Shown: piece after piece, positions 4,431 through 31,557 of the stretch
Numbering within the stretch: the first letter of the stretch is position 1
How the letters are laid out: the number at the start of each line of letters is the position of its first letter
From: an uncultured Bacteroidota bacterium
GTDB lineage: Bacteria > Bacteroidota > Bacteroidia > UKL13-3
Reading direction: 5' to 3'
Length of the DNA: 46,981 nucleotides
NCBI GenBank assembly: GCA_903898215.1
Contig: CAIUEQ010000143.1
Location: 1-46,981 of the forward strand
Made by a program: the position numbers and the translations under genes
The notes under the pieces: generated by a model
The model's database searches: none
What the model saw: the letters and a program-made list of their open reading frames with translations, nothing else
What the model was told of the DNA's origin: nothing

Positions 4431-7400
4431 TTAATTTCTGATAAGGGTAACCGTTCCGTGAACAGATGTTTCATTAGCTTGAGCTCTCAACTTATAAGTG
4501 AAAATATAGAAGTAGGTTCCGTCTGCACAATCTGCCCCAGTATTATTATCTTTTCCATTCCACATATTTGTTTTGTCTGTACTGGTAAACACCTTAGTTC
4601 CCCAACGGTTATAAACCATCAGATCATATTTAAGTTCACCTTCAACATCTATTTTGAAGAAATCATTTTGTCCATTATCATCCGGTGTAAATACGTTAGG
4701 AATTACAACTTTGGTGATGTAAACATTATTAACCATTACACAGGTTGTGTCATTACAAAATTCAGGATCATTTGGAATATTTGTGAATGCCACCAAACAA
4801 ACTTTGAAGCTTCCGGTATCATCACCCAAATTGTATTCGAAATTAATATTCGGAATAGTGTATGACTTCGTACCATCAGCATCAGGTCTAAGCGTAATAC
4901 CATCTTTTTGATAAACTAACCAATGGTAATAATCTGCAGCCTGTGAGATGTTAGTGAATTTGTACAATGGGAAATTAGTAGTATCAAAAGGAACTTGAAT
5001 GATAGCCTTTGGTTTCATTGCACGAATGGTAATTGTATCTAGCATTCTACACTGCGCTGCTTTTGGAACAGATGACTGATAATTGATCGGGAACAATATA
5101 AATTTATATAGAGCCACCGAATCAAATTTCTGATTCTTCAAGGCCATATTACCAAAAACACTATCCTGTCTGATAAATGTTAATGGAGTATCTGCATACC
5201 TACGTTCAAATCTATATGCCGAGTAATTAAGCGAATCGGATAGATTTCGTACATCAAACAATTGACCCACACAAACAGTATCCTTATCAGCTTTAATTTT
5301 AGCATAATATGGTTGTTTAACATAAATATTAATTGAATCGTCTGGTATTTTTACTTCCGGACAAGCAACCTGGTTTAGAGGCAAAGCATCACGACCAACA
5401 GCATAAATTTTAAATACTCCTGTATCAGTATATACATGCCAAACGGTATCACGTCTTCCTGTTACAGGCGACATTCCACCATCTCCCCAATAGAAGAATG
5501 TTGAAAGGGTTGGCGTATCAGAAGGATTTCTCATATCAAATGAATCGGCCATATTCAGGATTCCAACTCTGAAAGGTTTACAACCAATGGTATCGGTGAA
5601 AATCTTGAATGCTGGACGAGGTCCTTGAACAGTGATTGATTTAGTTACTGTATCCGCACAACCTTGTTCTGTAAGAATTGCCAATTTTACTTTAAAAATT
5701 CCGTTTTTATTAAAGAACCAAATAGGATTTGGAATAACAGAATTAGGCGTAAGGGTATCCTGACCTTGTAATCCATTTGGATATTTATATCTGATAGTAA
5801 ACCACCATTTACGAGAAACCTCATGGTCAAAAGTATTAGTATCGTTTGCACCTGTGATTACAAAAGATGAATCCATGAATGAAGCTGTATCCTTACAACC
5901 AATAATATCGCTTGTAGTAAAGATTTTAGCAACCGGTTTCATTACTTCAACAAATGACACACAAGTATCAAAATGACCAATACTATCACGACTAATCATT
6001 GACACTTTAAACCTTCCGTAATTTAAAAATTGGTGAGTAGGTTTTGTACTTGAAATGATTGGCGTTCCATCTCCAAAATTCCAATACACGCGATGTGTGT
6101 AGAATGGAAACGAAGTGTATTGGTTGTTACTGATAAACACCCACTGAAATCCATTCCAATAAAACATTCCAACTTTTTTGTATGCACCTTTTCCATTATT
6201 ATAAATAAGTGTGCGACCAATAGTTGGAATTGGAACTCTTGAAAGATCAGTTATTGAATTAAGGGTATCATAATTTGGAGAATTCAACGGAGTGAAAGTG
6301 ATTATTGGTGTGAAGCACGGATACCATCCACCATAAGTTCCCCACGTATACAAACCAGGGTCACCGAGTGGACCTGTTACCGGACAGAATATTACCATTC
6401 CAGGATAAAGTAATTCGTATGCCGAATCAGATGTGCTGGCAGGAATTAATACTTTTACATTTCCTCCTCTAAGCACTCTATCCCAATGGCCTGTACGTTT
6501 TAAATTAGGATTTACACCAGGTAAGTAGGTGAGATTATCATCATAATTTGTCCATTTTCCAGGGAAGTATCTGAAATCTATTTGACTATTTGAATAGATA
6601 GTGTTTGAGTTAACGAGCGTATCAGTTGGATTTATTGAATCTCTTGCCCAGAAATTAATAGTATCAAACTGATAAGTATCCCATGGGTAACCAGCATTTG
6701 GCTCAAGTACTCCATAGTTAAATCCATGGTATCCGTCAGGACGACTTGTACCCCAAATTGGAATAGCTGTCATGGTAATAAAATTATCGAATCTCCAATA
6801 TCTAAGCGAGTCAATAAAGTGAGCAGGTTCGTTTTTACAGAAAACGGTATCTTCAACCCAATCTCCTCCATAAATATGTAGAGTATCAATAATACCAACT
6901 GTAAAATATTGACCAACGTTGTATTGGCAGTTTTGAGAGTTGGTCATAAAATGATCTATGGTTGTAATTGCATTTTCAGGTAAGCCTGCTTTCAAAGCAA
7001 TTTCCCAACTTGTTTTATGATAAACATGCCATATTGGAAGATACATCATTGCGGTATCAATGGTAATATATTGAGTAAACCTCATGGTATCTCTCATTGG
7101 TAAGAACAGAGTATCCATGTAATTGGTATATCCATATTTTGACCAAAGTGGATCGGCATGATTAGGGTTTGGACATTTACTTCTCAAGACAAGGGTGTCA
7201 GGAGCAGCTGTTGAAATATAATTGAAGAATCGGTGATAATTTACCGGCAATTTAGTGGTATCCTGAGCTCTGATCCGAATTGTATCAGGGTATAAACCTG
7301 CCCACGAATCGTGATTTGGTTCGGTACACTTATTCCGCAACATCAATATATCAGGAGCAATAAATCCTATTGAATCCCAGAATCGTTTGTAAAATCTTAT

Positions 7401-10400
7401 AGGATATTTAAATTGTCTTGTGCCATAAACTCCACAAGGCCAAACAGTAGAATCTATTATTACCGGATTACCTGATGATAAATCAAAATTATATTGAACA
7501 CGTCTTACTCCATGAGTATAATAACCATCGGTAGTATCTATTGGACTAAAATAGAATGAATCGGCTGTAACGGTTTGATCGTTCCAAACCCATACATTGC
7601 TTTTAACACTATCTTGAATACTATCTGCATAAATCACCCAAATTGTATCTTCACGCTCTCTTAGGTATGAAGCAGGATACACCCCATTTATTCCTGAAGG
7701 AAGTATTTCGATTGGTGATTTTATAAATGCTGCATTGAGTTCTTTTATTCGCCAGAAGTTATGATACCAAACTGTATCTGAAATACAACGCGACCAGTTT
7801 GGATCGATATATTCTAAAGTATATAAAGTATCCGGGAAATATGCAATAGAATCATAAGTACGTCTTAAAGGAACACGGTTAATAATTGCATTAAAGGCAT
7901 ACGTATGTGGCAAACTATCATCAACCCATCCGGCAGGAATTGGCACAAGTGGTGGTGTAGTTTTGTTTGCAATCTGGTCTATTAATAAGAAATTCTTATA
8001 GGTCCATGGGTTTCCTAGTCCGGCAGGATCTGCAGGATTCCAGCTATAAATTTTACCAGCTGAATCTCTTAAAGGACCGCCACTATTTGTTTGATTTAGT
8101 AAATAATTTGATTTCCAAACCTTAATTGTACTATCCTTTAAACCGTTTCCGATAAATACTCCAATGGTTACATATCCTAATAAACTATCAGCAGCAGGAG
8201 GTGTACCCGCATTTGCTCCCATATGGTATTGTAAAATCGAACCGCTGGCACCTGTCCATGGACTTGGTGGCAATGGATTCCAATTCATTCCAGTGTAAAA
8301 AGTATTTCTAGTCAAGAAACCAGGAGTAGTATTTGCACCTGGTCCTGGTGCTAACGCTGTTCCATAAGTACCAACTCCCCATGATGTAAATCCATCCAGA
8401 TAGCAAGGTGTATAATCCATCCTATCGGCAAGTGAATCAATATCGATCCATATAGATGTTCTACTTCCACATTCGAGTTTAAATCCTGGATATGGTTGTT
8501 TTTTATCATCAAATCTTAAGGCAGGATATCCTTGTGTACCTTGACCATTTAAACCAGGGCACTCTTTAGGTTGTTTACCCATACCTCTTGCATCAGGTTT
8601 TCCTAAAGCAAGAATAACGGTTGATTGCATTGTACAATCCCATGCATCAAGTGTATCTCCATCATTAAAATAACTTGGGTTGCGGTTTGAAGCCGTACGG
8701 CTTTCATTGTTTAAACTATCGGTTAATAATAGAGTTACTGTAATACATTTTTGAATGACCCTTCTAAACATATACTCGAAGAAATCCTGATTACTTCCCG
8801 GTAACTTAGTAGTACCCGGTGGTAGAACTATTGATTTTCCGGCAGTATAAGTTAATGGAGGGAAGTGGACAGCCGTATCAATACTGATACCGCTAAACAA
8901 AGTATAATTACCAAGTGCCATTTGGAATGGATCAGGAATTTGAGTAGCCCCGGGGGTTATTCCATTTGGTGCATTACCCGGTAACAAATCTCTTGGAAGC
9001 TGATTTGCTCTAGGTAAAGATTGATTGAGTGTATCGATACGAGGCCATTTTACCCATTTACCAGGTAGTGTGTCTCTTTCAATATATTTTTTCTGACAAT
9101 TAGAAGCAGGGGTATTTGAATAATAAAAATGCTGTTTACCTAAATGATTCCTATTGATGTATGAACCATAAGTTCCTGCTATACTCTGATATGATCCTAA
9201 TGCAATAAGATTTGCAATAGTAGCACTATCAGTAAAAGTAAAATAGTTACAGACATAAGTAGTGTCTACATAATGTGTAACAAATGAAGAGTCTTGCCTT
9301 TTCGACCAATTTCCAGATAGTATGTCTAGGTAAATTGGTTTACCCCACCAAGTGGTATCCCAGTCTTTTACAGCATAAGGTGATGTACCGTTAGTTCCTG
9401 GGGAACCATTTTTTGTCCAGAAATTCCCAGGAAGTGCCGAATTCCAAGGCATAAAATCATGTCCGTATCGGTACCAAAGGTATACGGTATCCCAGTTTGG
9501 ATAAACATGTCGAGGTAAAGTATCGTGTGAGTAATTACAATTTCTTCTTCCCTGATAGGTAACACCATTGCTGATAAAGAAATGATCACTATGCATAAAT
9601 TGTTGTACCGCATCACTCCACATACGTGTGGTATCATACATCACCAACAAAGTATCATGAAAACTCAAATAATCATTGGTATTTGAAATTGGTTTGTAAT
9701 ATGCAAACGAATCAATTTTTACTACTGGAGGCCAGCTGTACATACCCGCATGCGGAAAATGAGGAAGACTGAATGAAGTACATTGTGGAGCATAAACATC
9801 TCCAAAATCCCAACGTCTCCAAACATTTCTAGATTTATAGTTTACAGATGTATTTACAAAATCAACAGTATCGTTTGGTCCGCATTGTTGCTTTTGAGAT
9901 GTTTTAATCAGAATCTGAGCTGGTGGGTTTTCAATTCGAGCAAATGGTCCTAAAACTCTTACACCATAATTATAGCTTCGAGCAAATTTATACCAAAAAG
10001 TACTTAATGCTTTTCCAGTAGGATCAACAATCGTATTGTAATAGTATGGCTTAGTATGTAGTCCCAAAATATTCAAGCAAGAATCTGCCTGCACATCTTT
10101 TAATCCTGTAGGAAATGAAAGTGGAACTATTGAATCTCTAATTGTTTGAAAGGTTTTAGCTATTGGAGGTGGTATAAAGAAATTTGTAAGAACCGCATTG
10201 GTGAGCGTTCGTGGTGCAAATCCCCAATATTGATAAACCGGAACAGAGTCGGGTCTAATTATTGGATATGGTGAATATGGTGATGTGAAATTAAGCGTAT
10301 CGAAATAGTATGCTGTGTCTCCAATGTATTTGTTTTTAAATACCATTTTGTATTTAGCAAAATTGGAAACATGTCCAACATATCTCATTTGTACACTATC

Positions 10401-11948
10401 AATAGCATTAATAACCATAGCCTGTCCGTCAAATGCCGGATCTCTAGGTAATAATGCCGGACCAACCGCCACTTTATTTGTGTATCTAACAATTTGTCTT
10501 ATTGGTAATGTACTTGTTACCTTAGTAGGGTCTAACAAATCTCTTTGGCTATCGTAAGTAGTGTCAATGAATCTGTGATAAGGGCCAACCACTTTTGCAG
10601 AGTAATAAAAAAATGTTGTATCAGGATGACACTGAACTGTGAACGATGGAAAGAAGGAACCCATTGCTGAATATGCATGACATGGCTGCCACGACATACT
10701 ATCAAAGTTTCTATTGGTAGGGTCGGCCGGGTCTCCAAAATCCCATATAAATCCTTGCCCCATGCCTCCGGGTTGTACACCCAAAATTTCAGTCTGTTTA
10801 TAACAAATTGATCCGCTGTTTCCACTTCCCACACAAACCGAATCGGCTAAAATTGTTCCATTTGGCGAGGAGGTAGTTGAAGTTACATCGAATTTAAAAT
10901 TAATGTTCGCAGGAATTGGTTTTCCTCCTGAGTTTGATGGTGTTTTTCTTAAACTATCTGTACAACCCCAAACATTTGTAATTGACAATTTTGGTTTAAA
11001 AATACCTCCTTCACAATAACAGTGGGTAATCGTATCAAAATGTGCAGAGTCAAATTTTCCAACTGCAGTATCACATTTCGTCATTAAAAAAGGACGCTGT
11101 CCTGTATAGGTATTTGAATCCGGTTCCCACCAATTATCACATAATTGTTTATCACCAAAATCCCACTGATAATGGTTTACTTTATCAATTGCTAGTGGAC
11201 TTAAGTTTTTAAATCGGTAACAAGTTTGAAAACAATATCCGCTAGTTTGTATCCATGAAAAATTAGGCGTTGCACTATTTACAACAACAACTCCAAGTGA
11301 ATCGTGACCGCTAGGATTCACTTTCACTGACTTACAACCGTGATCATCAGTGACTGTTAAACTCGGGAAAAATTGGTTCACAAATCCATATGAATGGCAA
11401 ACGATAGGACTACAATCATTTTTAGAATCTCCATCTCCAAAAAGCCAAAAACATGATGCTAATTTATTGCTAGGTGATAAAGGATTTTGAATAGAACTAT
11501 TTACAAAACAAAACTGATTTCCATTAAAACACTGTGTATCTAAAGAATTTGAAGTAAGTGAAAAATTTGCTATTGGAAGTTGGTAAACTGTATAACTTAT
11601 TGTACCTGCTGAATAGTGGGTGCTATCTGTAGCAACGGCTTCACCTGAAGCGTTATATACTCCCGGAGGAATTCCAAGAAATGGATATTGTTGAGGTATG
11701 CCTGATGATGGAGTATGGTTTCCTATAAATTTTCCATAAGGAAGCTGAACCGCATCTGCCCAAAACTTAAAGTATGCCAGTGTCTTTCCGGTTGGAAGAA
11801 TGGATGTGTTAATGATAAGCGTTACCTGATCACCATCACAAATAGCTGTAGGCGGATATACCGGATACACATCAATATTTTGTGAAAACAACTTTGGTGT
11901 GCTTAATACCAATAACATCAAAATGAACAAGGTGTACAGCTTTTTCAT
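4431..11948 (-). CDS. giant secreted protein (2505 aa) with PKD-like segments and a T9SS type-B (gliding-motility C-terminal, CHU_C) sorting domain
   Basis: Start trimmed to ATG 11948 (MKKLYTLFILMLLVLSTPKLFS|QN signal peptide); the track ORF runs 28 codons further upstream. Scattered W.FGD(G) PKD-type signatures are present. The C-terminus (nt ~4434-4718), VVIPNVFTPDDNGQNDFF...YDLMVYNRWGTKVF...MWNGKDN.TGADCADGTYFY...HGTVTLIRN, is the TIGR04131/PF13585 pattern. Confidence 0.9.
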   Translation of the reverse strand: MKKLYTLFILMLLVLSTPKLFSQNIDVYPVYPPTAICDGDQVTLIINTSILPTGKTLAYFKFWADAVQLPYGKFIGNHTPSSGIPQQYPFLGIPPGVYNASGEAVATDSTHYSAGTISYTVYQLPIANFSLTSNSLDTQCFNGNQFCFVNSSIQNPLSPSNKLASCFWLFGDGDSKNDCSPIVCHSYGFVNQFFPSLTVTDDHGCKSVKVNPSGHDSLGVVVVNSATPNFSWIQTSGYCFQTCYRFKNLSPLAIDKVNHYQWDFGDKQLCDNWWEPDSNTYTGQRPFLMTKCDTAVGKFDSAHFDTITHCYCEGGIFKPKLSITNVWGCTDSLRKTPSNSGGKPIPANINFKFDVTSTTSSPNGTILADSVCVGSGNSGSICYKQTEILGVQPGGMGQGFIWDFGDPADPTNRNFDSMSWQPCHAYSAMGSFFPSFTVQCHPDTTFFYYSAKVVGPYHRFIDTTYDSQRDLLDPTKVTSTLPIRQIVRYTNKVAVGPALLPRDPAFDGQAMVINAIDSVQMRYVGHVSNFAKYKMVFKNKYIGDTAYYFDTLNFTSPYSPYPIIRPDSVPVYQYWGFAPRTLTNAVLTNFFIPPPIAKTFQTIRDSIVPLSFPTGLKDVQADSCLNILGLHTKPYYYNTIVDPTGKALSTFWYKFARSYNYGVRVLGPFARIENPPAQILIKTSQKQQCGPNDTVDFVNTSVNYKSRNVWRRWDFGDVYAPQCTSFSLPHFPHAGMYSWPPVVKIDSFAYYKPISNTNDYLSFHDTLLVMYDTTRMWSDAVQQFMHSDHFFISNGVTYQGRRNCNYSHDTLPRHVYPNWDTVYLWYRYGHDFMPWNSALPGNFWTKNGSPGTNGTSPYAVKDWDTTWWGKPIYLDILSGNWSKRQDSSFVTHYVDTTYVCNYFTFTDSATIANLIALGSYQSIAGTYGSYINRNHLGKQHFYYSNTPASNCQKKYIERDTLPGKWVKWPRIDTLNQSLPRANQLPRDLLPGNAPNGITPGATQIPDPFQMALGNYTLFSGISIDTAVHFPPLTYTAGKSIVLPPGTTKLPGSNQDFFEYMFRRVIQKCITVTLLLTDSLNNESRTASNRNPSYFNDGDTLDAWDCTMQSTVILALGKPDARGMGKQPKECPGLNGQGTQGYPALRFDDKKQPYPGFKLECGSRTSIWIDIDSLADRMDYTPCYLDGFTSWGVGTYGTALAPGPGANTTPGFLTRNTFYTGMNWNPLPPSPWTGASGSILQYHMGANAGTPPAADSLLGYVTIGVFIGNGLKDSTIKVWKSNYLLNQTNSGGPLRDSAGKIYSWNPADPAGLGNPWTYKNFLLIDQIANKTTPPLVPIPAGWVDDSLPHTYAFNAIINRVPLRRTYDSIAYFPDTLYTLEYIDPNWSRCISDTVWYHNFWRIKELNAAFIKSPIEILPSGINGVYPASYLREREDTIWVIYADSIQDSVKSNVWVWNDQTVTADSFYFSPIDTTDGYYTHGVRRVQYNFDLSSGNPVIIDSTVWPCGVYGTRQFKYPIRFYKRFWDSIGFIAPDILMLRNKCTEPNHDSWAGLYPDTIRIRAQDTTKLPVNYHRFFNYISTAAPDTLVLRSKCPNPNHADPLWSKYGYTNYMDTLFLPMRDTMRFTQYITIDTAMMYLPIWHVYHKTSWEIALKAGLPENAITTIDHFMTNSQNCQYNVGQYFTVGIIDTLHIYGGDWVEDTVFCKNEPAHFIDSLRYWRFDNFITMTAIPIWGTSRPDGYHGFNYGVLEPNAGYPWDTYQFDTINFWARDSINPTDTLVNSNTIYSNSQIDFRYFPGKWTNYDDNLTYLPGVNPNLKRTGHWDRVLRGGNVKVLIPASTSDSAYELLYPGMVIFCPVTGPLGDPGLYTWGTYGGWYPCFTPIITFTPLNSPNYDTLNSITDLSRVPIPTIGRTLIYNNGKGAYKKVGMFYWNGFQWVFISNNQYTSFPFYTHRVYWNFGDGTPIISSTKPTHQFLNYGRFKVSMISRDSIGHFDTCVSFVEVMKPVAKIFTTSDIIGCKDTASFMDSSFVITGANDTNTFDHEVSRKWWFTIRYKYPNGLQGQDTLTPNSVIPNPIWFFNKNGIFKVKLAILTEQGCADTVTKSITVQGPRPAFKIFTDTIGCKPFRVGILNMADSFDMRNPSDTPTLSTFFYWGDGGMSPVTGRRDTVWHVYTDTGVFKIYAVGRDALPLNQVACPEVKIPDDSINIYVKQPYYAKIKADKDTVCVGQLFDVRNLSDSLNYSAYRFERRYADTPLTFIRQDSVFGNMALKNQKFDSVALYKFILFPINYQSSVPKAAQCRMLDTITIRAMKPKAIIQVPFDTTNFPLYKFTNISQAADYYHWLVYQKDGITLRPDADGTKSYTIPNINFEYNLGDDTGSFKVCLVAFTNIPNDPEFCNDTTCVMVNNVYITKVVIPNVFTPDDNGQNDFFKIDVEGELKYDLMVYNRWGTKVFTSTDKTNMWNGKDNNTGADCADGTYFYIFTYKLRAQANETSVHGTVTLIRN

Positions 11949-11985
11949 ATAATTAAGTTTTGATTTGTTTTTTAAATATAAAAAT

Positions 11986-12000
11986 CCCTGTTCGTCAGGG
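11986..12000 (-). terminator. weak hairpin between the anti-sigma-like gene and the giant gene
   Basis: The stem is ccctg-ttcgt-caggg. On the minus strand it is followed by atttttatattt. The stem is only 5 bp. Confidence 0.3.
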
Positions 12001-12060
12001 GTGTTTATTTGAAATAATGAATTTGCTAACATAAATTTAATATTTAATATTTTCTACTTT

Positions 12061-12978
12061 TTAACGAATTATTTTAACAACTCCTCTTTTTGTGTTCACC
12101 TTTTCGGTGTTTTTATATTGATAATTAAAGAGGTAAGTATAATCACCTTCTTCACATAGTTCTCCTAAATTCATCTTCGTTCCATCCCAAATTTTATCTT
12201 TACTATCGCTTTCAAAAACCAAGTGATTTTTACTGTCATAAATTTTTAAATCGTAGAAACTTTCGTTTTCAATTATTATTAAAAGTTTGTCATTAATCCC
12301 GTCTCCGTCAGGTGTAAATGAATTTCCAATTTTAGGTTTCACAAAACTGCTTTCATCATTGATAATAGCAGGAGAAGAAATATTGTTTTCCGGAGGAGAA
12401 ATTTTATGATTTGGCTTTGGAAGAACCTGTTTTTGCTCAGGCTTTAGAGTTTGTACAATAACCGGTTTCGTCTCAGTAATTTTGGCAATTGGTGAATTAA
12501 TTGATATAGATTTATTTTCATTTGCTTCAACAATCGGTTTCGAATTCTCAACAGAAACTGAACTATTTTTTGAATTCTGTTTAGGATGAATTATTGAAGG
12601 TGTTTGTGATTTTTCTTCTATAATATTTTGGTTTTGATCCGGCAAATTTTCAATAGGTTTTTGTTCAATATTTTGAGGCGCTTGAATTTGAGGAACAGAA
12701 ACTGTTGTTTGAGTATTTGTGGCTTTATTGAAATAATTAAATGCTAAATATCCTCCTCCTAAAATAATTCCTGAAGTTATTGCTGTGATGGTGATTTTAG
12801 AAATAATACTTGCAGATTTGAAAACCTTTGCTGTTTGTGAAATGGTATTTTGTGAATTGATATTGGGGGTTTTTGATATTCCTTGTTGAATATCAGCCCA
12901 TGAATTGGAAGGAGGAGTAGCTTCAAATCCATCAAAGCTGTTCCTTAATAATTCATCAATATTATTTATATTTTTCAT
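12061..12978 (-). CDS. single-pass membrane protein: anti-sigma-like N-terminus, low-complexity linker, diverged T9SS type-B (CHU_C-like) C-terminal domain
   Basis: 305 aa, and the start overlaps the sigma stop as ATGA (12975-12978). The N-terminus (IDELLRNSFDGFEATPPSNSWADIQ) is a type often found downstream of Bacteroidota ECF sigma genes. A hydrophobic span covers aa ~56-82. The C-terminus is FTPDGDGINDKL...YDLKIYD...VFESDSKDKIWDGTK..LGELCEEGDYTY...RGVVKIIR. Confidence 0.85.
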   Translation of the reverse strand: MKNINNIDELLRNSFDGFEATPPSNSWADIQQGISKTPNINSQNTISQTAKVFKSASIISKITITAITSGIILGGGYLAFNYFNKATNTQTTVSVPQIQAPQNIEQKPIENLPDQNQNIIEEKSQTPSIIHPKQNSKNSSVSVENSKPIVEANENKSISINSPIAKITETKPVIVQTLKPEQKQVLPKPNHKISPPENNISSPAIINDESSFVKPKIGNSFTPDGDGINDKLLIIIENESFYDLKIYDSKNHLVFESDSKDKIWDGTKMNLGELCEEGDYTYLFNYQYKNTEKVNTKRGVVKIIR

Positions 12979-13631
12979 CTGATAATTTTTTGCACTTTTA
13001 ACAATTCATTTTGCAAAACAACTCTGGCTCTAGATAATTGAGACTTTGAAGTCCCTTCACTTATCCCCAGCATTTCTGCAATCTCAGCATGTGAATAGCC
13101 TTCAATAATAAAAAGGTTTAACACATTTCTATAACCAGCCGACATCTTATTAAGTACAACCAAAATTTCTTTTTGAGATATTTTCTCTAAAGTAAAATCG
13201 TGGTGTACATTGTTATAAGCTAATTCAACATCTTCCTGATTCTGATGATTTTTATTTGCCCGATAATGCTCTAATGCAGTGTTTATAAAAATTCGCTTCA
13301 TCCAACCTTCAAATGAACCCGTAGAATTGAACTGACCCATTTTTGTAAAAATTTTTATAAACCCATCTTGCAAAATATCTTTTGCATCATCATAACAATT
13401 GCTGTATCGTAAACAAATACCAAACATGCTTTTAGAATATTGGTCATATAAACGTTTTTGCGCTTTCCCGTCTCCACCGATACAATCCTTTATTAAATTC
13501 AGCTCAAGTTGTTTATCCACTTTTATTGTACCAATTATATGTTCAGATGTAAATAGAGGTGCTTTGGTTGCAATGGTATAAAAAATTCTTAAAAGTTTCT
13601 TAATCCTTGTAATCAAATACAGATTTAGCAT
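12975..13631 (-). CDS. ECF-type RNA polymerase sigma-70 family factor
   Basis: Region 2 (DAKDILQDGFIKIF...WMKRIFINTALEHYR) and the region 4 HTH (YRNVLNLFIIEGYSHAEIAEMLGISEGTSKSQLSRAR) are present. The annotated ATG lies only 22 nt from the divergent gene start. An in-frame GTG at 13520 would give a more typical 181-aa protein. Confidence 0.9.
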   Translation of the reverse strand: MLNLYLITRIKKLLRIFYTIATKAPLFTSEHIIGTIKVDKQLELNLIKDCIGGDGKAQKRLYDQYSKSMFGICLRYSNCYDDAKDILQDGFIKIFTKMGQFNSTGSFEGWMKRIFINTALEHYRANKNHQNQEDVELAYNNVHHDFTLEKISQKEILVVLNKMSAGYRNVLNLFIIEGYSHAEIAEMLGISEGTSKSQLSRARVVLQNELLKVQKIIR

Positions 13632-13653: not shown

Positions 13654-16600
13654 TTGAAAAAGAAAGATTTCATAAAACTACTTTTCACTCTTTACTTTTT
13701 GTGGTTTTCCCACGATAAAATCATTGCGCAAAATCCTGAAAAAATTTCTTCAGAAAATAATTTTGAATTTGTTGAAAACATAGGTCAATGGGATAATCCA
13801 TCGTTATACTCGGTTCAAATGAATGGTGCTGAATTATTTATTGAAAAAAATGCATTACAATATTTTTTTTACGATCAGGGCGACATTGCAAAACTTGTAA
13901 AACATCCACGTGCTGTTAAAGAAGATTTTAAAAGTTACACAGTAAAAGGACATGCACTTAGAATTAACTTTTTAAGCTGCAATGAAAATACGAAGGCAAT
14001 CGGTTCGCAACCTTTTAAACATTATTACAATTATTTTAGGGGCAACAACAGCATGCGATGGAAATCATTTGTAAAACCTTTTGCAGAAGTTTCTCTTCAA
14101 AAAATTTATCCTGGAATTGACATTAAATTATACACCGAATCGCGCACACATTCTTTAAAATATGATTTGATTTTACAACCGGGTGCCGATCCTGAAAATA
14201 TAAAAATGAATTATGAAGGAGCTGAAAATTTAAAAATTAAAAGTGGCGCACTTTACGCTCAAACAAGCGTTCGAACATATATTGAATTAAAACCTTTCGC
14301 TTATCAAATCGTTGATGGGCAAACGAAAAAAATTAAATGCGATTTTATTCTCACCAACAATACATTAAGTTTTAAACTCGGTTCATACGATCATTCCATT
14401 CCGCTTGTGATCGACCCGGTTGTGATTTTTTCAACTTATTCCGGTTCAACTGCCGATAACTTTGGACATACTGCAACCTATGATCATGATGGTAATTTTT
14501 ATGCTGCCGGAATAGTTACCGGACCATTTGCATCTTTTAATCCAAACGGCCGTTACCCTGCAACAGTTGGTGCTTTCATGCAAACTTATAATGGAGGAAC
14601 CACTCAATGGCCTGAGTCTTCATTTCCTTGTGATATCTCAATCAGCAAATACAATAATGATGGTTCAGCTTTGATGTACGCAACTTATTTGGGAGGAAAC
14701 CGAAACGATTATCCGCATAGTTTGGTGGTTGATAAAGATAACAGACTGATTGTTTATGGAAGCACCTGTTCCAACAATTTTCCGGTTACTTATGGTGCAT
14801 ATGATACTACTTTTAACAGCACCACAAACGAATCTGATATCATCGTTACAAAATTTAATACTACAGGTTCTGCATTGATTGGTTCAACTTATCTTGGAGG
14901 CTCATCTTGGGATGGGATCATGTGGTCGGATCCTTCGAGTGTGATTGATACGTTAAGTGTAAACTATGCTGATGAATTTAGAGGTGAAGTACAGGTAAAT
15001 AATGCAAATGAAATTGTGATAGCTACAACTACTTTTTCATCAAATTTTCCGACAACATCAGGTGCATTTCAAACTGTAAATAAAGGATTGCAAGAAGCTT
15101 GCATTTTTAAATTTGACAGCACACTAAAAAAATTAATTTGGTCATCTTATTTAGGAGAGTCGAATAATGATGCAGCCTATTCGTTAGACATTGATACCAT
15201 AGGAAATATTTATGTGGCAGGTGGAACTCAAAGTAAAAGTTTTCCAATAACATCAGGTGTTTACCAATCAAGTTTTGCCGGTGGTCCTGTAGATGGTTTT
15301 ATTACAAAAATAAGTTCAAATGGAAGCGCCATCATGCGATCGATGTATTGGGGTGGGGCAAAATATGATCAAACTTATTTTGTAAAACTCGATACAAAAG
15401 GAAAAGTAAATGTATTCGGACAAACATTTGATTCGATGCCGGTTACTTCAAATGTTTATAGTTCAGCAAAAGGCAGTTTATATATTTCCCGATTCTCAAA
15501 TAATTTAGATTCGTTAGAATTTTCTACGGTTATTGGAAATGGAGTTCAAAACAATGCGCTATCACCGAGTGCATTTATTGTTGATGCTTGTGGAAATATT
15601 TATGCTTCGTGCTGGGGAGGAGAAACAAATTTATATGGTAACGGTTATACCAACTTTCATTATGCTCATAACACCGCACTTTTGCCAATTACAAGTGATG
15701 CTTTACAAAGTTCAACAGACAATAGCGACTTCTATTTATTTGTTTTAAAAAAAGATGCCAAGACTTTATTTTACGGAAGTTATCTGGGAGGAAATCAATC
15801 GGGCGATCATGTTGATGGAGGCACAAGCCGATTTGATAAACGAGGAATAATTTATCAATCGATATGTTCGAGCTGTCATAATAGTTATTATACTTTAAGT
15901 GATTTTCCTACAACTCCAGGCTCGTACTCGCCATTAAATAAAAGTCCGAGATGCAGCAACGCAGCTTACAAACTTGATTTTAGATTAAGCGATTTGGTGA
16001 TTGCTGATTTTTTAATTTATCCCAGAAACAGTTGCTCCGACACTGTGCTCACTTTTACAAACAAAAGTTATAACGGCAAACAATTTTATTGGTATATTGA
16101 TAATGTTCTTAAAGATACTGCACGCAATTACAAATATTCTTTTCCGAAAAAAGGGAACCACCAAATTAAACTTGTTGCCGTTGATTCATCCCGATGTATC
16201 ATTGTTGACAGTATCGCAAAAACCGTAAATATTGCTGCATCAAGCAATAGCGATTTTACTTTTATTCGTGACTCCTGCTCGTTTAAAGTATCGTTTACAA
16301 ACAACACTTTTGTAGCAAACGGAGATTCTGTTCCATACTTTTGGAAGTTTGGTGATGGCGATACTTCCACACAAAAAAATCCGATACATACTTTTTTCCA
16401 GGGAGGAAATTATTTTGTTTCCCTCATCAGTAATCCGGGAACATTATGTGCCGATACCACACAAAAAACTTTTTATCTCGACACCACAAAATATCAACTT
16501 GAACCTCGAATAAAAATTATTCCCTTGCAATCTTGCCTGCCTTCTTCTGTAAGTTTTTTTAATCGGTCAATAAACGGGAAAAAGATTTTTTGGTATTACG

Positions 16601-18285
16601 ATAACATCTTAAAAGATTCTGTCAATCAATTTTCAGATTCATTTTTTCTTGAAAAAACTATCGTAGTAAAACTCGTGGTGATGGATTCGGTGACTTGCAA
16701 AAAAATTGATTCCACAAATCAAACCATTAGCACAGTTGCATCGAGTAATGCATCTTTTGTAACCGTTCCGGATACCTGTGGCAAAAAATATTCTTTCACA
16801 AATACTTCCACATCGTATAAAAATATTCCAGTAAAATATTTATGGGATTTTGGTGATGGCGATACCTCCACACAAAAAAATCCTACACATAAATATTTGG
16901 ATAACGGAGTATATATTATCAAGTTGGTTTGTAATTCAGGAACCGCATGTGCCGATAGTTTTTACGATTATGTTGTATATGACAGTGCCTATTATTTTGT
17001 GGTTCCTAAATTTGACCCATTGCCATGGTATGGTTGCTCTCCACAATTTTTAACCTGTGCTAATTTAACTCAAAATAACCGACACAAATTTTATTGGTAC
17101 ACCAACGGTGTTTTGCGTGATTCCAATTTTAATTTTCAAGACAGCCTTATTCTTCCAAATTTATATCGGATAAAATTAATTGTGGTTGATAGTAATACCT
17201 GCAATATTGCCGACTCGATTACTCAAAATGTTTTTGTCGATGTGTCGAGCAAAAGTGCTTTTACATTATTCAGAGACACTTGTTCTCCACTCGTATTTTT
17301 TACAAACAAAAGCACCACCTTTCAAAATAATGTAGTCAATTATTATTGGACTTTTGGAGATGGAACTTCTTCCTATAGCAAGGATCCAATTTCGCATGCT
17401 TACCCAAGCAGTGGAAATTATACCGTAACGTTATACAGTGGTTCGGGACCTTGCACCGACACTTCTTTTATTACTTTTAATTATGATATTTCAGGACATA
17501 TTTTAAAAGCAGGATTTCAGGTTTCAGATACTTTTTTGTGCATCCCTCAGATCTTGCAAATATCAAATACCAGCAGTGGTGGGAAATATTTTTATTGGTA
17601 TGTGAATGATGTGTTTGTGAGTTCTTCAAAAAACTATTCCATAAATATTTCTTCAACCGGAATTACAAAAATCAAACTTGTCGTTATTGATTCTTCGAGA
17701 TGTAATTTTATTGATTCGTTTGAAACAAGTGTAAATGCTATTCAAAAATCGACTGCCGATTTTGGCATCTCTGCAGATGTTTGTTCGCGTGAATTATTTT
17801 TTAAAAACAAAACCGGTATGCCGGGAATTCCCTACAAATGGAATTTTGGTGATGGAGATTCTTCGTTTAACGCAAATCCTTCGCACAGTTATTCAAAGCC
17901 TGGAACCTATATTATAAAACTTATTAGTAATGCAGGAACTAAATGTGCCGACACCACATTCAAACAATATAATTTTAATGGAGATACCATTGATGAATTA
18001 ATTATCCCAAATGCCTTTTCTCCAAATGGTGATGGCATCAATGATTTTTTTGAAATTCGTGGCGTTTCATGGGAATGCGATACGTTTCATATTTTTATTT
18101 TTAACAGATGGGAAAATCCATTTTTTGAATCGAGCGACCCGAGAATAATGTGGAATGGAAAAAATGAAAGAGGTGTAGAAGCTTCAGATGATGTGTATTT
18201 TTATTTGCTATACATTAAAAAACACAGTGGAAAAGAAATGAATATTCATGGAACAATCACGCTAGTTACAGGTGTAAAAAACTAA
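13654..18285 (+). CDS. 1543-aa secreted protein: SBBP beta-propeller repeats, four tandem double-PKD modules, T9SS type-B sorting domain
   Basis: TTG start with signal peptide MKKKDFIKLLFTLYFLWFSHDKIIA|QN. It has SBBP-type repeats (YATYLGGNRNDYPHSLVVDKDN.LIVYGSTCSNNFPVT) and PKD signatures (W.FGDGDTSTQKNP). The C-terminus (nt ~17992-18282) reads IIPNAFSPNGDGINDFFEI...IFNRWENPFFES...MWNGKNERG...DDVYFY...HGTITLV. Confidence 0.9.
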   Translation: MKKKDFIKLLFTLYFLWFSHDKIIAQNPEKISSENNFEFVENIGQWDNPSLYSVQMNGAELFIEKNALQYFFYDQGDIAKLVKHPRAVKEDFKSYTVKGHALRINFLSCNENTKAIGSQPFKHYYNYFRGNNSMRWKSFVKPFAEVSLQKIYPGIDIKLYTESRTHSLKYDLILQPGADPENIKMNYEGAENLKIKSGALYAQTSVRTYIELKPFAYQIVDGQTKKIKCDFILTNNTLSFKLGSYDHSIPLVIDPVVIFSTYSGSTADNFGHTATYDHDGNFYAAGIVTGPFASFNPNGRYPATVGAFMQTYNGGTTQWPESSFPCDISISKYNNDGSALMYATYLGGNRNDYPHSLVVDKDNRLIVYGSTCSNNFPVTYGAYDTTFNSTTNESDIIVTKFNTTGSALIGSTYLGGSSWDGIMWSDPSSVIDTLSVNYADEFRGEVQVNNANEIVIATTTFSSNFPTTSGAFQTVNKGLQEACIFKFDSTLKKLIWSSYLGESNNDAAYSLDIDTIGNIYVAGGTQSKSFPITSGVYQSSFAGGPVDGFITKISSNGSAIMRSMYWGGAKYDQTYFVKLDTKGKVNVFGQTFDSMPVTSNVYSSAKGSLYISRFSNNLDSLEFSTVIGNGVQNNALSPSAFIVDACGNIYASCWGGETNLYGNGYTNFHYAHNTALLPITSDALQSSTDNSDFYLFVLKKDAKTLFYGSYLGGNQSGDHVDGGTSRFDKRGIIYQSICSSCHNSYYTLSDFPTTPGSYSPLNKSPRCSNAAYKLDFRLSDLVIADFLIYPRNSCSDTVLTFTNKSYNGKQFYWYIDNVLKDTARNYKYSFPKKGNHQIKLVAVDSSRCIIVDSIAKTVNIAASSNSDFTFIRDSCSFKVSFTNNTFVANGDSVPYFWKFGDGDTSTQKNPIHTFFQGGNYFVSLISNPGTLCADTTQKTFYLDTTKYQLEPRIKIIPLQSCLPSSVSFFNRSINGKKIFWYYDNILKDSVNQFSDSFFLEKTIVVKLVVMDSVTCKKIDSTNQTISTVASSNASFVTVPDTCGKKYSFTNTSTSYKNIPVKYLWDFGDGDTSTQKNPTHKYLDNGVYIIKLVCNSGTACADSFYDYVVYDSAYYFVVPKFDPLPWYGCSPQFLTCANLTQNNRHKFYWYTNGVLRDSNFNFQDSLILPNLYRIKLIVVDSNTCNIADSITQNVFVDVSSKSAFTLFRDTCSPLVFFTNKSTTFQNNVVNYYWTFGDGTSSYSKDPISHAYPSSGNYTVTLYSGSGPCTDTSFITFNYDISGHILKAGFQVSDTFLCIPQILQISNTSSGGKYFYWYVNDVFVSSSKNYSINISSTGITKIKLVVIDSSRCNFIDSFETSVNAIQKSTADFGISADVCSRELFFKNKTGMPGIPYKWNFGDGDSSFNANPSHSYSKPGTYIIKLISNAGTKCADTTFKQYNFNGDTIDELIIPNAFSPNGDGINDFFEIRGVSWECDTFHIFIFNRWENPFFESSDPRIMWNGKNERGVEASDDVYFYLLYIKKHSGKEMNIHGTITLVTGVKN
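16010..17990 (+). repeat. four tandem ~500-bp (about 167-aa) intragenic modules
   Basis: FYWY anchors lie near 16084, 16587, 17090 and 17591. FGDG anchors lie near 16348, 16849, 17350 and 17843. Copies 1 and 2 share a near-identical 33-mer (tttggtgatggcgataYYtccacacaaaaaaat). Confidence 0.8.
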
Positions 18286-23983: not shown

Positions 23984-26900
23984 TTATTTATTTTTCATGG
24001 CTTTTACAAACTGATTTCGTGCTGAAATATTTGCTAATCGAAGTTTGTATTCATCCTTTGAAACTTTGTCAATTTGATCTTTTAAAATTTTATTAAATGC
24101 CAAATCGGAGCCTATCACATACATGATTCCTTTTTGATATTTAAAGAAATACCAGCTGCCTTGTGGCGATTGCAAGTATAAAGTAAAATCATCCCCACTC
24201 CTTCGTTTTACAAGCTCCATTTTTCCTCTGATCTTACGTTCAAATTTATATTTATCAAACGAGTTTATACCGATATCACCAACAGATACCAATGATCTTG
24301 TTGGCTGATTCCATTTCACATTCATATCTGAAATAAAGATCGTTTTCTCCAAATCATTTATTAACCTGATGGAATTATTATCTTCAATTTCTTCTTTTAT
24401 TTTTTTGATATTTCTTTCTTCCACCACTTCCGATAATGCTTTTGTTAAAAACACCGGATCGAACTCAGGTTGGTTTGCTGTAAGTGATTGATCGGTGAGC
24501 GAATCATACATTGCACGAATAGCGTTTTGTGGGAAAGGAAAATTAAGCAACATCACAAGCTTCATATTAAATGAAGTATCGAGATAACTGTAACTTGCAT
24601 TACCGGCTGCTGATATCTCAAACTTGCTGCCTTCAAATCCAATTTTATAGCGACCTTCGGTATAGAAATTTTTCTTAGCTTCATTAAACTCCATTAAATT
24701 TCCTTTTGGTGCTTGTTTAAAAATCTTACTGTATGAGCCCATTTTAAAGACGTTAGTTTTTTCGTCATAAAATAATGTTCCCTGTACTTTTATCAACTCA
24801 TGATCGGAGGCACTTCGCTTACGAGAAAAGAAACTCGGATAAGCATGCGTTGAATCAAGAGAAATATTCATTCCAACAGAAAGTGTTTGTCGGTTTTGAT
24901 TCACTAGCGATTCCTGCACATTGATATAAACCGAATCGGGATTTACAACAGCTGAGTTTCTGAACCAATCTGTTTTCGGCATTGGCAATTTATTTTCAGC
25001 TAGGAAATATCCGTCATACTCGAGGTTTTTAACAATACTTTTCAGCAATGCATTTCCTTTAAAGAAAATATGCGGACCAACATAAAAATGAATAGAATCA
25101 GGAATAATTGATTTAGCAACAAGTTGATGAGCCGTATTGATATTTATTTCGCTCAAGAAAAATTTCTGTTTGTTTTTCTTTCTGTCGACATACTCGTAAT
25201 CTCCTTTTCCATCCAAATTAAATCTTCCTAATATTTTCACTGAAGCGTTTTCAATATTGTGATATTTAGTGATGGTATCGGCAGTAATATTTGCGCGATA
25301 TAAAATTTGCATATCAGCATCTTGTTTAATGGTAACTTGCTGACTGTCGGCAAAAACTTTTGCATCACCCACACGTATAAAAGGAACCTTTTTTGAATAG
25401 AGTGTAAAGTCGTGTAAATCGAGTGTAGAAATTCCTGTTGTAAATTTCAGCGAATCTTGTCCTGAACGTGTAGATACCAGATAAGATGCAGCTTCGCTGT
25501 TAATCATATAACTTCTGAAATCCACTTTTTTATGATCCATATACCAAATAAATTGTTCGAACGAACCTGCGTATTGATTAAAGGTAAAGTTAGAATTTAG
25601 GCCTCCAGAATTGAATACAAAATTGCCGATCCTATCCTGCAAATTCACGTTAGCTTTTACAGAAGCTGAGTTGAAAGAAAATCTTGAAGAATCTTGAAGA
25701 GAGCGAATTCTGAATGTACAATTTTCGGATAAAATATTATCTGGTTGAAGCCAAAAATCTTCGGATAGCAATTGCGATTCTTCCACATTTGTAATCCCAC
25801 GAGCACGCAAATCGGTTGGCGTTAAAATAAGCGTACCATCCAGCGTTGAACGATTGTCAGAAAATGAAATGTATTCCTGTGTTCTTGAAACAAACATCGT
25901 ATCGGCATAAGGAAGCCAATGTTCGTATACATTTACACCTTTAACAGTTGGATAAATAGACGTGCGTAAATTGTCGAATGTATTACACTGCGCATTCATC
26001 GAATCGAGCAAAAATATAAATTGATTGGAAACAGAAGTTGAGGAAATATATTTTAGATTTCCGTTGCCAAAAAAACCTTCATCACTTAATGAAAGATCAA
26101 CAAATCCTCTTCCTTTTCCTCCATACATTGGGTAACCGGGTTCAGGAGATGCAAGTTTAAATCCTAAAGATTTATCAGATTGGAGCGAAATAAAATGTTT
26201 GAGATCAGGAATAATTCCACCTGAAATAAGTGTTCCGCTTAATGCCATGTGTTCCAAATCCAAATCATTCAAACTATCCATGGTAAAAGGATCTACGTCA
26301 AAATAAAATCTGTCGTGCTGATAGGTTCCGAGTTGTGTTGATGGTTTATCATAAAAAACTTTTGATCCCACATCGGATTTAAATACCGGATAACCGGGAA
26401 AATGTTTTCGTCCGCTTTTATTAAAAGCATGATCGATTGCGAGGGTTCCATAAATATTATTCAAAGCACTTTTTACAGGAAGATTATTTCCTGTTTTTTC
26501 ATCTTTGTAAAGAAATTTCATGGAGTCAACGTTATTCAAACGCACTTCAAATTTTACGTAATCAAATGAAAATCCATTGCCATAAAAATCTACTTTTCCT
26601 GCCCTTAGTTTTCCTGAAAAATCCATGGTGCGATTTTTCTTGAGTGTAACAACTTGTTCTTTGGGAATGATATAAACATTTTGCGAATCGCTAAAATAAA
26701 ACTTCGGAACTCCTTGTATCTGTAAGTCGTTATTAATTAAACTAATTGTTGCATTAGCATATCTTTTTATGATTGATTCAAAAGTAATAGCGTCATAATC
26801 TGTTCTGCCATAATGCGCGTTCACATAATCTTTCAACTTTGATTTAAGGGTTACATATTCTCTTTTCGAATCGTAGTTAATAAAACCACGAGAATGCAAA

Positions 26901-28342: not shown

Positions 28343-28654
28343 TTGGCGCAAGATAAAAAATAATTTCGTCTTTGGTAAATGTGCTTTGCTCGCTTTTGAG
28401 AATGAGTAATTGGCAACAAGCAAAAGGCAATAAGCAATTGTCTTTTAACTATTGATTTTGTTTAGTATAATTTTGACTTATTTAAAGGGCTTATCGATTT
28501 CAAATCAACAATGTAGATTTAAAAAAAAGTTAGATGCGTTTAATTTTTATCGTTTAACAAACGGCATTGAATACATATATTTTTTAATATTAGATGAGTG
28601 TTTTTATGCAAGAGGAACTTTAACATTTACAAAGCATATTCTATACACCAAAAA

Positions 28655-29380
28655 TTAGACACATTCATCAGACCACTTGATTTTGTAGGGGGGGGGGTAA
28701 TTATTTAAATTGTACAAATGATACATTGAGCAAAAACATTTTAACTCATCAATACTGTTTAAAGCAAGTTTTTTTAAAACTCTTTCGCGGTACGAATTTA
28801 CCGTAGTAGCTTCAATATGCATTGCTGCGGCAATTTCATGTTGCGATTTATGGTTTGCAAAATGCAATAAATATTCACGTTCGCGCTCAGCTAAAATCAG
28901 CAATTTGTTTTCAAAAAAACCATTATCTTTAAATGCTTTATTATACGATTGCAGTATAGCAGAACTAATAAAAATTTTATTATTTTCAATTGAATTAAAT
29001 AAGTGATTAAGCGTTTCCTCATCTAACTCTTCTTTACTTGAAATAAAGTTTATCCCTGCCTCTTTTAAATGCCAAAGCACCATGTTTGCATACCGAGAGT
29101 ATGTGTTTTCAATCCAATGTATTTCGCTTACAAAAACAAATGTATGATGTTTTGTGCCTCTATGCAAAACTGTTCTAAAAAGCTCAACGCCATCCATTTT
29201 TTCTAAATCAATATTTGCTATAACAATAGTTGGGGGTGCGGCAATCAAATTATTTAATGCTTCTTTACCAGAGCTTGTTTGAATAACACAAGCATTAAAT
29301 TGGTATTGTTTAATAAAATCAATAAATCCTTTGCGGTAAAAATGGCAACGGTCGGCAACCAACCAGTTATTTATTTTCAT
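28655..29380 (-). CDS. LuxR/GerE-type HTH regulator with a receiver-like N-terminal domain
   Basis: The C-terminal HTH is EREREYLLHFANHKSQHEIAAAMHIEATTVNSYRERVLKKL. The N-terminus is CheY-like, but by-eye alignment (IVIANIDLEKMDG vs VVLMDLRMPGMDG) puts Asn at the phospho-acceptor position. Confidence 0.8.
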   Translation of the reverse strand: MKINNWLVADRCHFYRKGFIDFIKQYQFNACVIQTSSGKEALNNLIAAPPTIVIANIDLEKMDGVELFRTVLHRGTKHHTFVFVSEIHWIENTYSRYANMVLWHLKEAGINFISSKEELDEETLNHLFNSIENNKIFISSAILQSYNKAFKDNGFFENKLLILAEREREYLLHFANHKSQHEIAAAMHIEATTVNSYRERVLKKLALNSIDELKCFCSMYHLYNLNNYPPPYKIKWSDECV

Positions 29381-29430
29381 AGTTTATATTATTTCATTCG
29401 GTTAAAGTAAGTACATAACTTCAATTTAGC

Positions 29431-29496: not shown

Positions 29497-29551
29497 GCGC
29501 AAATTAATCTGTTTGCTAACCTTTGGCACTCACAAATTATTTTTAAAAATT

Positions 29552-31543: not shown

Positions 31544-31557
31544 TATCTGAATGTTTC

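Follow-up and report, generated by a model that had tools for sequence, protein, structure and literature searches.

A probable Dma-like anti-sigma factor with a variant type-B sorting domain of the type IX secretion system in an uncultured Bacteroidota bacterium

The stretch of DNA analyzed here, which we refer to as the window, is 46,981 nucleotides long and represents contig CAIUEQ010000143.1 of assembly GCA_903898215.1, from an uncultured Bacteroidota bacterium of the UKL13-3 lineage. On its reverse strand, a gene for a sigma factor of the extracytoplasmic function (ECF) type is followed by a gene for a single-pass membrane protein of 305 amino acids, which is very likely a Dma-like anti-sigma factor with a periplasmic variant of the C-terminal domain (CTD) of type B from the secretion system of type IX (T9SS). 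The 2 reading frames, 12061..12978(-) and 12975..13631(-), overlap with a stop and a start codon in the sequence ATGA at 12975-12978, in agreement with the first-pass annotation of this DNA, and the gene pair is flanked by genes for 2 giant cargo proteins. The features that are discussed below are as follows.

12975..13520 (-): ECF sigma factor gene, encoding 181 amino acids from a GTG codon at 13520; the longest open reading frame (ORF) reaches 13631
12061..12978 (-): gene for the anti-sigma-like single-pass membrane protein, 305 amino acids, its start overlapping the stop codon of the sigma factor gene
12880..12978 (-): N-terminal block, residues 1 to 33 (NNIDELLRNSFDGFEATPPSNSWADIQQG), cytoplasmic, presumed sigma-binding segment, from conservation and a shared motif
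12730..12819 (-): juxtamembrane KSASIISK and transmembrane (TM) span, residues 54 to 83, rich in Gly, Ser and Thr, from the hydropathy peak
12343..12729 (-): periplasmic low-complexity linker, residues 84 to 212 (129 amino acids), from composition and predicted local distance difference test (pLDDT) values
12064..12342 (-): variant of the type-B T9SS CTD (CHU_C), residues 213 to 305, from Pfam, TIGR04131 and the structural model
12226..12234 (-): S249-K250-N251, at the position of R-W-G in cargo, in a hairpin turn between strands 239-247 and 253-257 of the model
4431..11948 (-): downstream giant type-B cargo, 2505 amino acids from the Met of its signal peptide, with PKD and CHU_C domains (Pfam)
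13654..18285 (+): divergent giant type-B cargo, 1543 amino acids, with DUF7948, SBBP, 4 PKD domains and CHU_C (Pfam)

Domain plan and linkage to sigma factor genes

The 305-amino-acid protein had been described as consisting of an N-terminal block, one hydrophobic span, a low-complexity linker and a CHU_C end, and all 4 parts were recovered. In an alignment of the full-length homologs, the N-terminal block (residues 1 to 33) was the best conserved part of the protein, with a mean pairwise identity of 73% as compared to 54% for the CTD and 26% for the linker. The segment of residues 1 to 55 contained neither Cys nor His. A single hydrophobic peak was located at residues 56 to 83 (Kyte-Doolittle 1.6), and the residues K54, S55 and K61 were invariant among the homologs.

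The orientation of the protein in the membrane was examined in 141 family members. The mean number of Lys and Arg residues was 2.2 in the 15 residues on the N-terminal side of the span versus 0.9 in the 15 residues on the C-terminal side, and the N-terminal flank was richer in these residues in 103 members and poorer in 13. By the positive-inside rule, this charge bias across the family is evidence for an N-terminus in the cytoplasm and a C-terminus in the periplasm, in line with the earlier placement of the C-terminus on the extracytoplasmic side. The protein has no cleavable N-terminal Sec signal peptide, and the span begins at about residue 56, after a conserved polar segment; no signal-peptidase site of the AXA type was seen after the span when the sequence was read directly. 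The alternative that the span is a signal peptide with a long N-region was rejected, since such a site is lacking and since no other part of the protein is as well conserved as the segment ahead of the span.

The linker consists to 70% of Pro, Gln, Asn, Ser, Thr, Lys and Glu, is also rich in Ile, and contains no aromatic residues, Gly, Cys or Arg. Its pLDDT values of 30-40 in the AlphaFold model predict that it is disordered, such that one TM helix is followed by a long disordered stretch in the periplasm, as is characteristic of Dma proteins. We also noted a semi-conserved box in the linker, EQKQVLPKPNH at residues 181 to 191 (12406-12438, reverse strand), about 25 residues ahead of the CTD and with the consensus EQKQ(V/A)LPKP(N/K)H. 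The residues Q182 and P189 of this box are nearly invariant within the otherwise variable linker, and the box is a candidate cleavage or docking site.

A search with the full-length sequence identified eleven homologs of 294-311 amino acids, with sequence identities down to 28-32%. An exhaustive phmmer search with residues 1 to 85 against 1.84 billion representative sequences gave 30 hits, 22 of which ended in a CHU_C domain, in three cases with a preceding PKD domain. The other 8 ended in an outer-membrane beta-barrel (OMP_b-brl or OMP_b-brl_2), and in these the N-terminal motif was often present in 3-5 tandem copies ahead of the barrel. A profile search with the full-length alignment recovered 358 clusters at E <= 1e-5, the higher-ranked of which were inspected. 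The best 120 of the 358 clusters consisted of the window clade and of 110 proteins with PKD and CHU_C domains, 360-460 amino acids in length, from metagenome-assembled genomes of Flavobacteriales; the N-terminal motif was present in 108 of these 110 proteins, and a TM span was located at the expected place in 98. Two fragments only were retrieved with an N-terminal profile of 90 amino acids in a word-indexed protein search, and one further full-length relative (L002) was found in a scan of species-representative genomes with an N-terminal pattern that was narrow. The family thus defined comprises at least 130 related protein clusters of the same build, some of which have a PKD domain inserted.

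It was also noted that the tandem copies of the motif (F..FE..P....W..I) are located ahead of the TM span in P0020 (L086 6001-7980), P0023, P0024 and P0030. Three to five copies are odd for a segment that binds a sigma factor one-to-one.

To study the gene neighborhoods, we examined 15 independent loci, namely the window, L001, L002, the P0005 contig, L082, L084, L087, L088, L089, L090, L092, L093, L014, L039 and L094. A gene for an ECF sigma factor was located immediately upstream in all 15 loci, in most cases with overlapping start and stop codons and in the others with abutting ones, and the linkage to ECF sigma genes that the first-pass annotation had expected of homologs elsewhere was thereby observed throughout. 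The one beta-barrel-ended relative examined, in L086, was likewise linked to a sigma factor gene. In public databases, the family members are annotated as "gliding motility-associated C-terminal domain-containing" or "PKD domain-containing" proteins and never as anti-sigma factors, which means that, in current annotation, over a hundred proteins that are probably regulators go unrecognized among cargo proteins.

The closest known counterparts are the Dma proteins. In Dma1, the first 40 residues suffice for binding to Das1, an ECF21 sigma factor, cleavage takes place in the linker, and the barrel at the C-terminus resides in the outer membrane (PMC10927553). Like the Dma proteins, which are restricted to Bacteroidota, the 305-amino-acid protein is encoded directly after an ECF sigma factor gene and has a short cytoplasmic N-terminal segment, one TM span, a long disordered linker and a module directed to the outer envelope. 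Unlike in Dma, however, the eight-stranded barrel (OMP_b-brl_2) is replaced by a soluble type-B sorting domain, sometimes after a PKD domain, and any contact with the outer membrane must therefore go through another protein. Because the defining barrel is absent, we consider the 305-amino-acid protein to be a relative rather than a member of the Dma proteins. A common origin with the barrel proteins of the Dma plan is likely, since sigma-linked proteins with a C-terminal barrel carry the same N-terminal motif, and binding of the sigma factor by the N-terminal block is suggested by synteny and by the homology of this motif to Dma-type proteins. The Dma plan would thereby be extended to a second kind of outer-envelope module, which suggests that the trans-periplasmic sensors of Bacteroidota include a family of modular build.

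The protein also resembles the anti-sigma factors of the FecR type in that it is single-pass, with a periplasmic end that would contact an outer-membrane component and release by regulated proteolysis, but it differs from these in having neither a FecR domain nor any other known anti-sigma domain, and in that the partner would be a secretion machinery instead of a TonB-dependent transducer. As noted in the first-pass annotation, no characterized anti-sigma factor is known to be built in this way. This holds for the CHU_C end, but 2 close precedents had been missed, the Dma proteins and PorA. No published description of an anti-sigma factor with a CHU_C or T9SS type-B sorting domain was found in the searchable full-text literature, and CHU_C is unmentioned in the main text of the paper on the reclassification of ECF sigma factors.

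Several observations argue against an anti-sigma function. There was no match to classical anti-sigma domains (zf-HC2, RskA, RseA_N, FecR and related domains) at E <= 1 in Pfam and NCBIfam, and the CTD alone was modeled with confidence in the full-length AlphaFold model, in which the N-terminus was poor. Furthermore, all family members seen are from metagenome-assembled or uncultured genomes, and for Dma1 itself the comparison was made with its published description. The protein could instead be a small accessory or cargo protein of the T9SS with an uncleaved signal anchor, which shares the operon of a sigma factor that is controlled in some other way; the lack of a match to anti-sigma family models and the names given in the databases would agree with this. 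We consider this alternative to be highly improbable, given that the gene is immediately downstream of the sigma factor gene in every locus, that the cytoplasmic N-terminal block is both the most conserved part and shared with the sigma-linked barrel proteins of Dma architecture, and that a conserved cytoplasmic segment of 55 residues before the anchor has no role in ordinary cargo.

The type-B C-terminal domain and the loss of Arg-Trp

The C-terminal part of the protein, for which a type-B sorting domain had been proposed, matched PF13585 (CHU_C) with 50.5 bits at residues 217 to 301 (gathering cutoff 27), and with 55 bits when analyzed in isolation. The match to TIGR04131 was borderline relative to the cutoff of 35, the scores being 33.3 bits with the complete sequence and 36.4 bits with residues 213 to 305 alone. 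In the AlphaFold model, the last 65 residues or so form a confident beta-sandwich with pLDDT values of 77-87. A fold search of the Protein Data Bank with the model gave only generic Ig-like and CBM-like sandwiches at E > 1e-3, among which the CTD region of PorZ ranked third, which is not decisive.

Both flanking giants carry a CHU_C domain at the C-terminus (Pfam). The similarity to their CTDs that had been noted by eye corresponds to sequence identities of 37% for the downstream giant and 26% for the divergent giant. Across the loci, the CTD of the anti-sigma-like protein was 37-39% identical to that of the downstream giant, which was the closest cargo CTD, and 22-33% identical to other CTDs. 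A recent copying of the CTD from the neighboring cargo gene was ruled out, as the CTDs group by orthology across loci. The protein resembles type-B cargo proteins (SprB-SprF, PG1035-PorP; PMC9143113, PMC12618676) in that it ends in a CHU_C/TIGR04131 domain in which conserved blocks are present, but differs from them in having a signal anchor after a cytoplasmic segment of 55 amino acids instead of a cleavable signal peptide, and in that the passenger consists of the disordered linker only.

We compared 33 non-redundant CTDs of sigma-linked proteins with 92 CTDs of cargo proteins from the loci fetched. The columns conserved in cargo that are kept in the sigma-linked CTDs are N219, F221, T222, P223, D226, G227, N229, D230, I246, F255, W264, D265, G266, G272, G278, Y280, Y282, G299, L/I303 and R305. 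These represent the blocks PNxFTPNGDGxND, WDG, GxYxY and the terminal G..L.R, that is, about twenty positions with cargo-like frequencies in sequences that are only 20-30% identical. Two columns conserved in cargo were lost, namely the Arg (present in 83 of the 92 cargo CTDs) and the Trp (77 of 92, 84%) of the RWG motif. The Trp at this position was present in none of the 33 sigma-linked CTDs and in none of 110 further family members, and the contrast between 0 of 143 and 77 of 92 gives a Fisher p = 3e-47, with the reservation that the sequences share ancestry and are not phylogenetically independent. Of the 2 changes at cargo-type positions in the first-pass annotation, the change of NRWG was thus systematic across the family, whereas the replacement of IPN by IGN was not, as some orthologs keep IPN.

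Each of five conserved type-B motifs (A-E) was required for the secretion of a fusion to the CTD of SprB in the study by Paillat et al. (PMC12618676). The CTD of the 305-amino-acid protein keeps four of the five type-B blocks, and the YNRWG block has lost the Arg and the Trp. As judged from the order along the sequence, RWG appears to be located within or abutting the second motif of that study. The selective loss bears on how type-B CTDs are recognized, and points to the RWG pair being needed for the completion of export rather than for recognition.

The domain could alternatively have been re-purposed as a generic Ig-like domain of the CHU_C fold that binds ligands in the periplasm, for instance polysaccharides, peptides or passenger domains of the cargo, with contact to the T9SS lost. 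The uniform absence of RW would be consistent with this, considering that secretion was dependent on each of the conserved type-B motifs tested (PMC12618676), as would the addition in some members of PKD domains, which are typical binding modules, the 2 loci in which no cargo gene is adjacent (L082 and L093), and the generic sandwiches in the fold search. We nevertheless consider this alternative to be distinctly unlikely. The conservation of about twenty other signature positions at cargo-like frequencies in such divergent sequences is hard to explain in this way, and therefore the domain likely still contacts the partners that constrain the CTDs of cargo; moreover, the linkage in operons to type-B cargo is recurrent in 2 subfamilies.

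Cargo linkage, regulatory DNA and a possible mechanism of sigma release

Genes for type-B cargo adjoin the gene pair for the sigma factor and the CHU_C membrane protein in most of the 15 loci. In the window clade, they form a module of 4 genes, which consists of a divergent giant with DUF7948, PKD and CHU_C domains, the sigma factor, the CHU_C membrane protein, and a CHU_C giant of 2000-2700 amino acids, and the genes that flank this module vary among loci. The downstream giant has kept its position in L001, L002, L087 and the P0005 contig, and the divergent giant is a conserved partner in L001, L002, L087, L088, L089 and the P0005 contig. In the divergent giant and its orthologs, DUF7948 is always at the start, and SBBP beta-propeller repeats come next. 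In the PKD subfamily, and independently of the window clade, the sigma factor gene is followed by the gene for the CHU_C membrane protein and then by one to three genes for CHU_C cargo (L014, L039 and L094, with three in L094). The window encodes both type-A and type-B cargo, and the organism therefore has a T9SS.

In one sub-clade, with L002 (2364-5999) and L084 (64-3382), two tandem PorP_SprF genes and a gene for an FGE-sulfatase lipoprotein of 482 amino acids, similar to GldK/J, were located directly upstream of the module; these possibly represent a dedicated shuttle-and-track set for the giants of the module. Such genes are of relevance for another alternative, in which the CTD is permanently docked on an outer-membrane barrel of the PorP/SprF type and the protein spans the periplasm in the manner of Dma. 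An envelope bridge of this kind would sense outer-membrane damage, surface contact or the movement of the gliding track rather than the secretion load, and the sigma factor would be freed when the bridge breaks or is pulled. The plan of N-terminal motif, TM span and disordered linker is indeed the same in the beta-barrel-ended relatives and in Dma1, type-B CTDs are retained on PorP-like proteins at the cell surface (PMC9143113), a disulfide bond connects SprF with the moving GldK track (PMC12635249), and the PorP_SprF and GldK/J-like genes adjoin the module in these 2 loci. Even so, we consider a permanent bridge to be unlikely. The known complexes of type-B CTDs and shuttle proteins form after translocation on the cell surface, which may be out of reach for a tethered domain, most module loci, including the window, have no PorP/SprF gene nearby, and the frequent presence in the operon of cargo genes with the same type of CTD would be left unexplained.

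The regulatory elements of the module in the window are located upstream of the sigma factor gene and in the junction between the anti-sigma-like gene and the downstream giant.

13543..13573 (-): ECF-type promoter of the sigma factor gene, with the -35 box TTGCAACC (13573-13566), a 16-nt spacer and the -10 box CATCTGA (13549-13543)
11949..12060 (-): junction from the stop codon of the anti-sigma-like gene to the downstream giant, with the AAAATATTAAATATTAA box, TATGTTAGCAAA, and then a short hairpin and T-run (12000-11986)

The sigma factor protein contains Sigma70_r2 and r4_2 (Pfam) and matches TIGR02937 with 94 bits, and the best of the more specific NCBIfam models score below their own cutoffs. 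With region 2 and region 4 only, and with a promoter of its own that has an AAC-type -35 box and a CGT-type -10 box, it is a sigma factor of group 4 (ECF). A CGT box at -10 is a hallmark of ECF promoters (PMC9723704). We scanned 1.43 Mb on both strands with the strict pattern GCAAC[CT]-N14-19-[CAT][GA]TCT[GA]A and obtained 14 matches; the pattern was found once per locus, just upstream of the sigma factor gene, in 8 loci (the window, L001, L002, L087, L088, L089, L084 and L082). The consensus across loci is TTGCAACC-N16/17-C(G/A)TCT(G/A)A, and variants of the form GCAACT-N15/16-CGTCA/CATCT were located upstream of the sigma factor gene in L092, L093 and L014, including the PKD subfamily. The first-pass annotation of the sigma ORF as 12975..13631 was correct for the frame and the overlap but not for the start at 13631. 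The most likely start is the GTG codon at 13520, because the conserved promoter is located inside the longer ORF and because the orthologs are 178-189 amino acids long.

A direct repeat, TTAAGAA-ACTT-TTAAGAA (13586..13603, reverse strand), was observed immediately upstream of the -35 box in the divergent intergenic region of 133 bp. The repeat is kept in the window, L087, L001/L089 and L088, and is present as a single copy in L002; it could be a site for a regulator or an UP-like element. Upstream of the divergent giant, on its strand, there is a conserved TA(A/T)TTTAGT box, which is one base off the TAnnTTTG -7 consensus of Bacteroidota, and no ECF-type motif was found on that strand, which suggests that the promoter of the divergent giant may be of the housekeeping rather than the ECF type. 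A scan of the window against Rfam gave no match.

The downstream giant is probably co-transcribed with the genes for the sigma factor and the anti-sigma-like protein, from the latter of which it is separated by a gap of 20-137 nt across loci. In the junction, the AAAATATTAAATATTAA box is an A/T box with two AATATTA repeats, which is followed by TATGTTAGC(A/G)AA and then by the hairpin and the T-run. These elements are conserved in the window, L001 10937-11050, L087 6043-6150, L088 5478-5590 and L089 4645-4757, and the sequence of the hairpin stem varies among the loci. It was also noted that the ATG of the junction box is in frame with the downstream giant and that, in five loci, this frame runs for 27-40 codons without a stop (MLANS...), with AGG instead of ATG in L002. 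The frame could encode a long N-region of the signal peptide or a leader peptide that overlies an attenuator, or the sequence could be a DNA or RNA site.

Taken as a whole, the evidence is consistent with a tethered signal that serves to monitor the type-B machinery or to compete for it, and we estimate the chance that sigma release is coupled to the T9SS to be about even. In such a mechanism, the first 35-40 residues or so would retain the sigma factor on the cytoplasmic side of the inner membrane, the Gly/Ser-rich helix would cross the membrane, and the disordered tether of about 130 residues would reach across the periplasm with the type-B CTD at its end. The sigma factor would drive its own operon from TTGCAACC-N16-CATCTGA, most likely with read-through into the gene for the cargo of 2505 amino acids. 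The tethered CTD would be recognized by the type-B branch of the T9SS, either the translocon or a PorP/SprF-like shuttle or both, but would probably be non-exportable and thus unable to complete export, because it is anchored and lacks RW. Upon engagement, the tether would become accessible to proteases, and cleavage within the membrane, in the TM helix, would then release the sigma factor. Free CTDs of cargo in the periplasm would compete for the same machinery, such that newly made anti-sigma factor is spared, and this feedback would match the synthesis of giant adhesins to the export capacity. The reverse direction, in which docking protects the anti-sigma factor and cargo displaces the CTD, would fit as well, and the sequence data favor neither. 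The steps of sigma binding, recognition of the tethered CTD by the T9SS and release by proteolysis are inferred from a purely computational analysis, as is the direction in which the system responds.

More tentatively, and on balance doubtfully, the domain without RW may act as a "decoy substrate", which the T9SS, driven by the proton-motive force, seizes but cannot release, such that the tether is pulled, which triggers cleavage and thereby release of the sigma factor. If true, this would constitute a FlgM-like secretion checkpoint and a load-sensing homeostat for giant type-B adhesins, and it would be the first example of a secretion signal in a membrane-anchored anti-sigma factor, and also the first regulator that is dedicated to the T9SS branch of type B.

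The following observations weigh against a coupling to the secretion of the neighboring giants. Neither a second ECF-type promoter nor a TAnnTTTG housekeeping box was found before either of the giants, and a terminator-like hairpin, for which the covariation support is weak, is located between the anti-sigma-like gene and the downstream giant. For these 2 reasons, control of the giants by the sigma factor is deduced from operon geometry only. The gene pairs in L082 and L093 have no adjacent type-B cargo, and the regulon is therefore not always next door. There is no PorP/SprF gene in the window, and among the module loci such genes are adjacent in L002 and L084 only. Finally, the loss of RW could equally mean that the domain no longer contacts the T9SS at all.

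PorA of Porphyromonas gingivalis offers a precedent for a CTD that acts as a signal. The T9SS CTD of PorA acts as a signal to PorY-PorX-SigP, and does so also in a form of PorA with a tether to the inner membrane (PMC12152298). The PorA - PorY/PorX - SigP pathway (PMC7712824, PMC12152298) and the system in the window have in common a T9SS CTD as the periplasmic signal and an ECF sigma factor as the endpoint. PorA is, however, a genuine secreted cargo of type A that acts via a two-component sensor kinase, whereas two-component signaling has no part in the system of the window, whose CTD is of type B and belongs covalently to the presumed anti-sigma factor.

A similar logic is known from the flagellar regulator FlgM. 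In the FlgM / sigma-28 system, the anti-sigma factor bears the export signal of the machine whose late substrates are controlled by the sigma factor, and expression waits for a working exporter. FlgM is, however, soluble and fully exported via the flagellar type III apparatus, whereas the protein in the window is membrane-anchored and lacks one cargo motif, and its release of the sigma factor would have to be proteolytic. The type-B branch handles gliding adhesins and other giant surface proteins, and to our knowledge little is known about the regulation of T9SS cargo in Bacteroidota beyond PorXY-SigP in one species, and nothing about that of the type-B branch. An anti-sigma factor with the sorting signal of the pathway itself would link export capacity to cargo synthesis in a direct and genetically simple way.

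Other genes in the window

The window also contains a gene for a LuxR-type response regulator (28655-29380, reverse strand), which is divergent from two genes for type-A T9SS cargo in the region 28655-33521. The first of these encodes a protein with Peptidase_S74 and Por_Secre_tail domains (29513-31543) and the second a protein with BNR/YCF48-like and Por_Secre_tail domains (31638-33521). A further type-A cargo protein, with CBM96 and Laminin_G_3 domains, is encoded at 43956-46859. An ORF of 1479 amino acids (23984-28423, reverse strand) had no Pfam match at E <= 1e-4. Amid housekeeping genes, we noted a gene for a small nucleotidyltransferase (Polbeta/NTP_transf_2; 33616-33918, forward strand) and one for an ORF6N-domain protein (34988-35512, reverse strand), which may be remnants of a toxin-antitoxin system or a mobile element.

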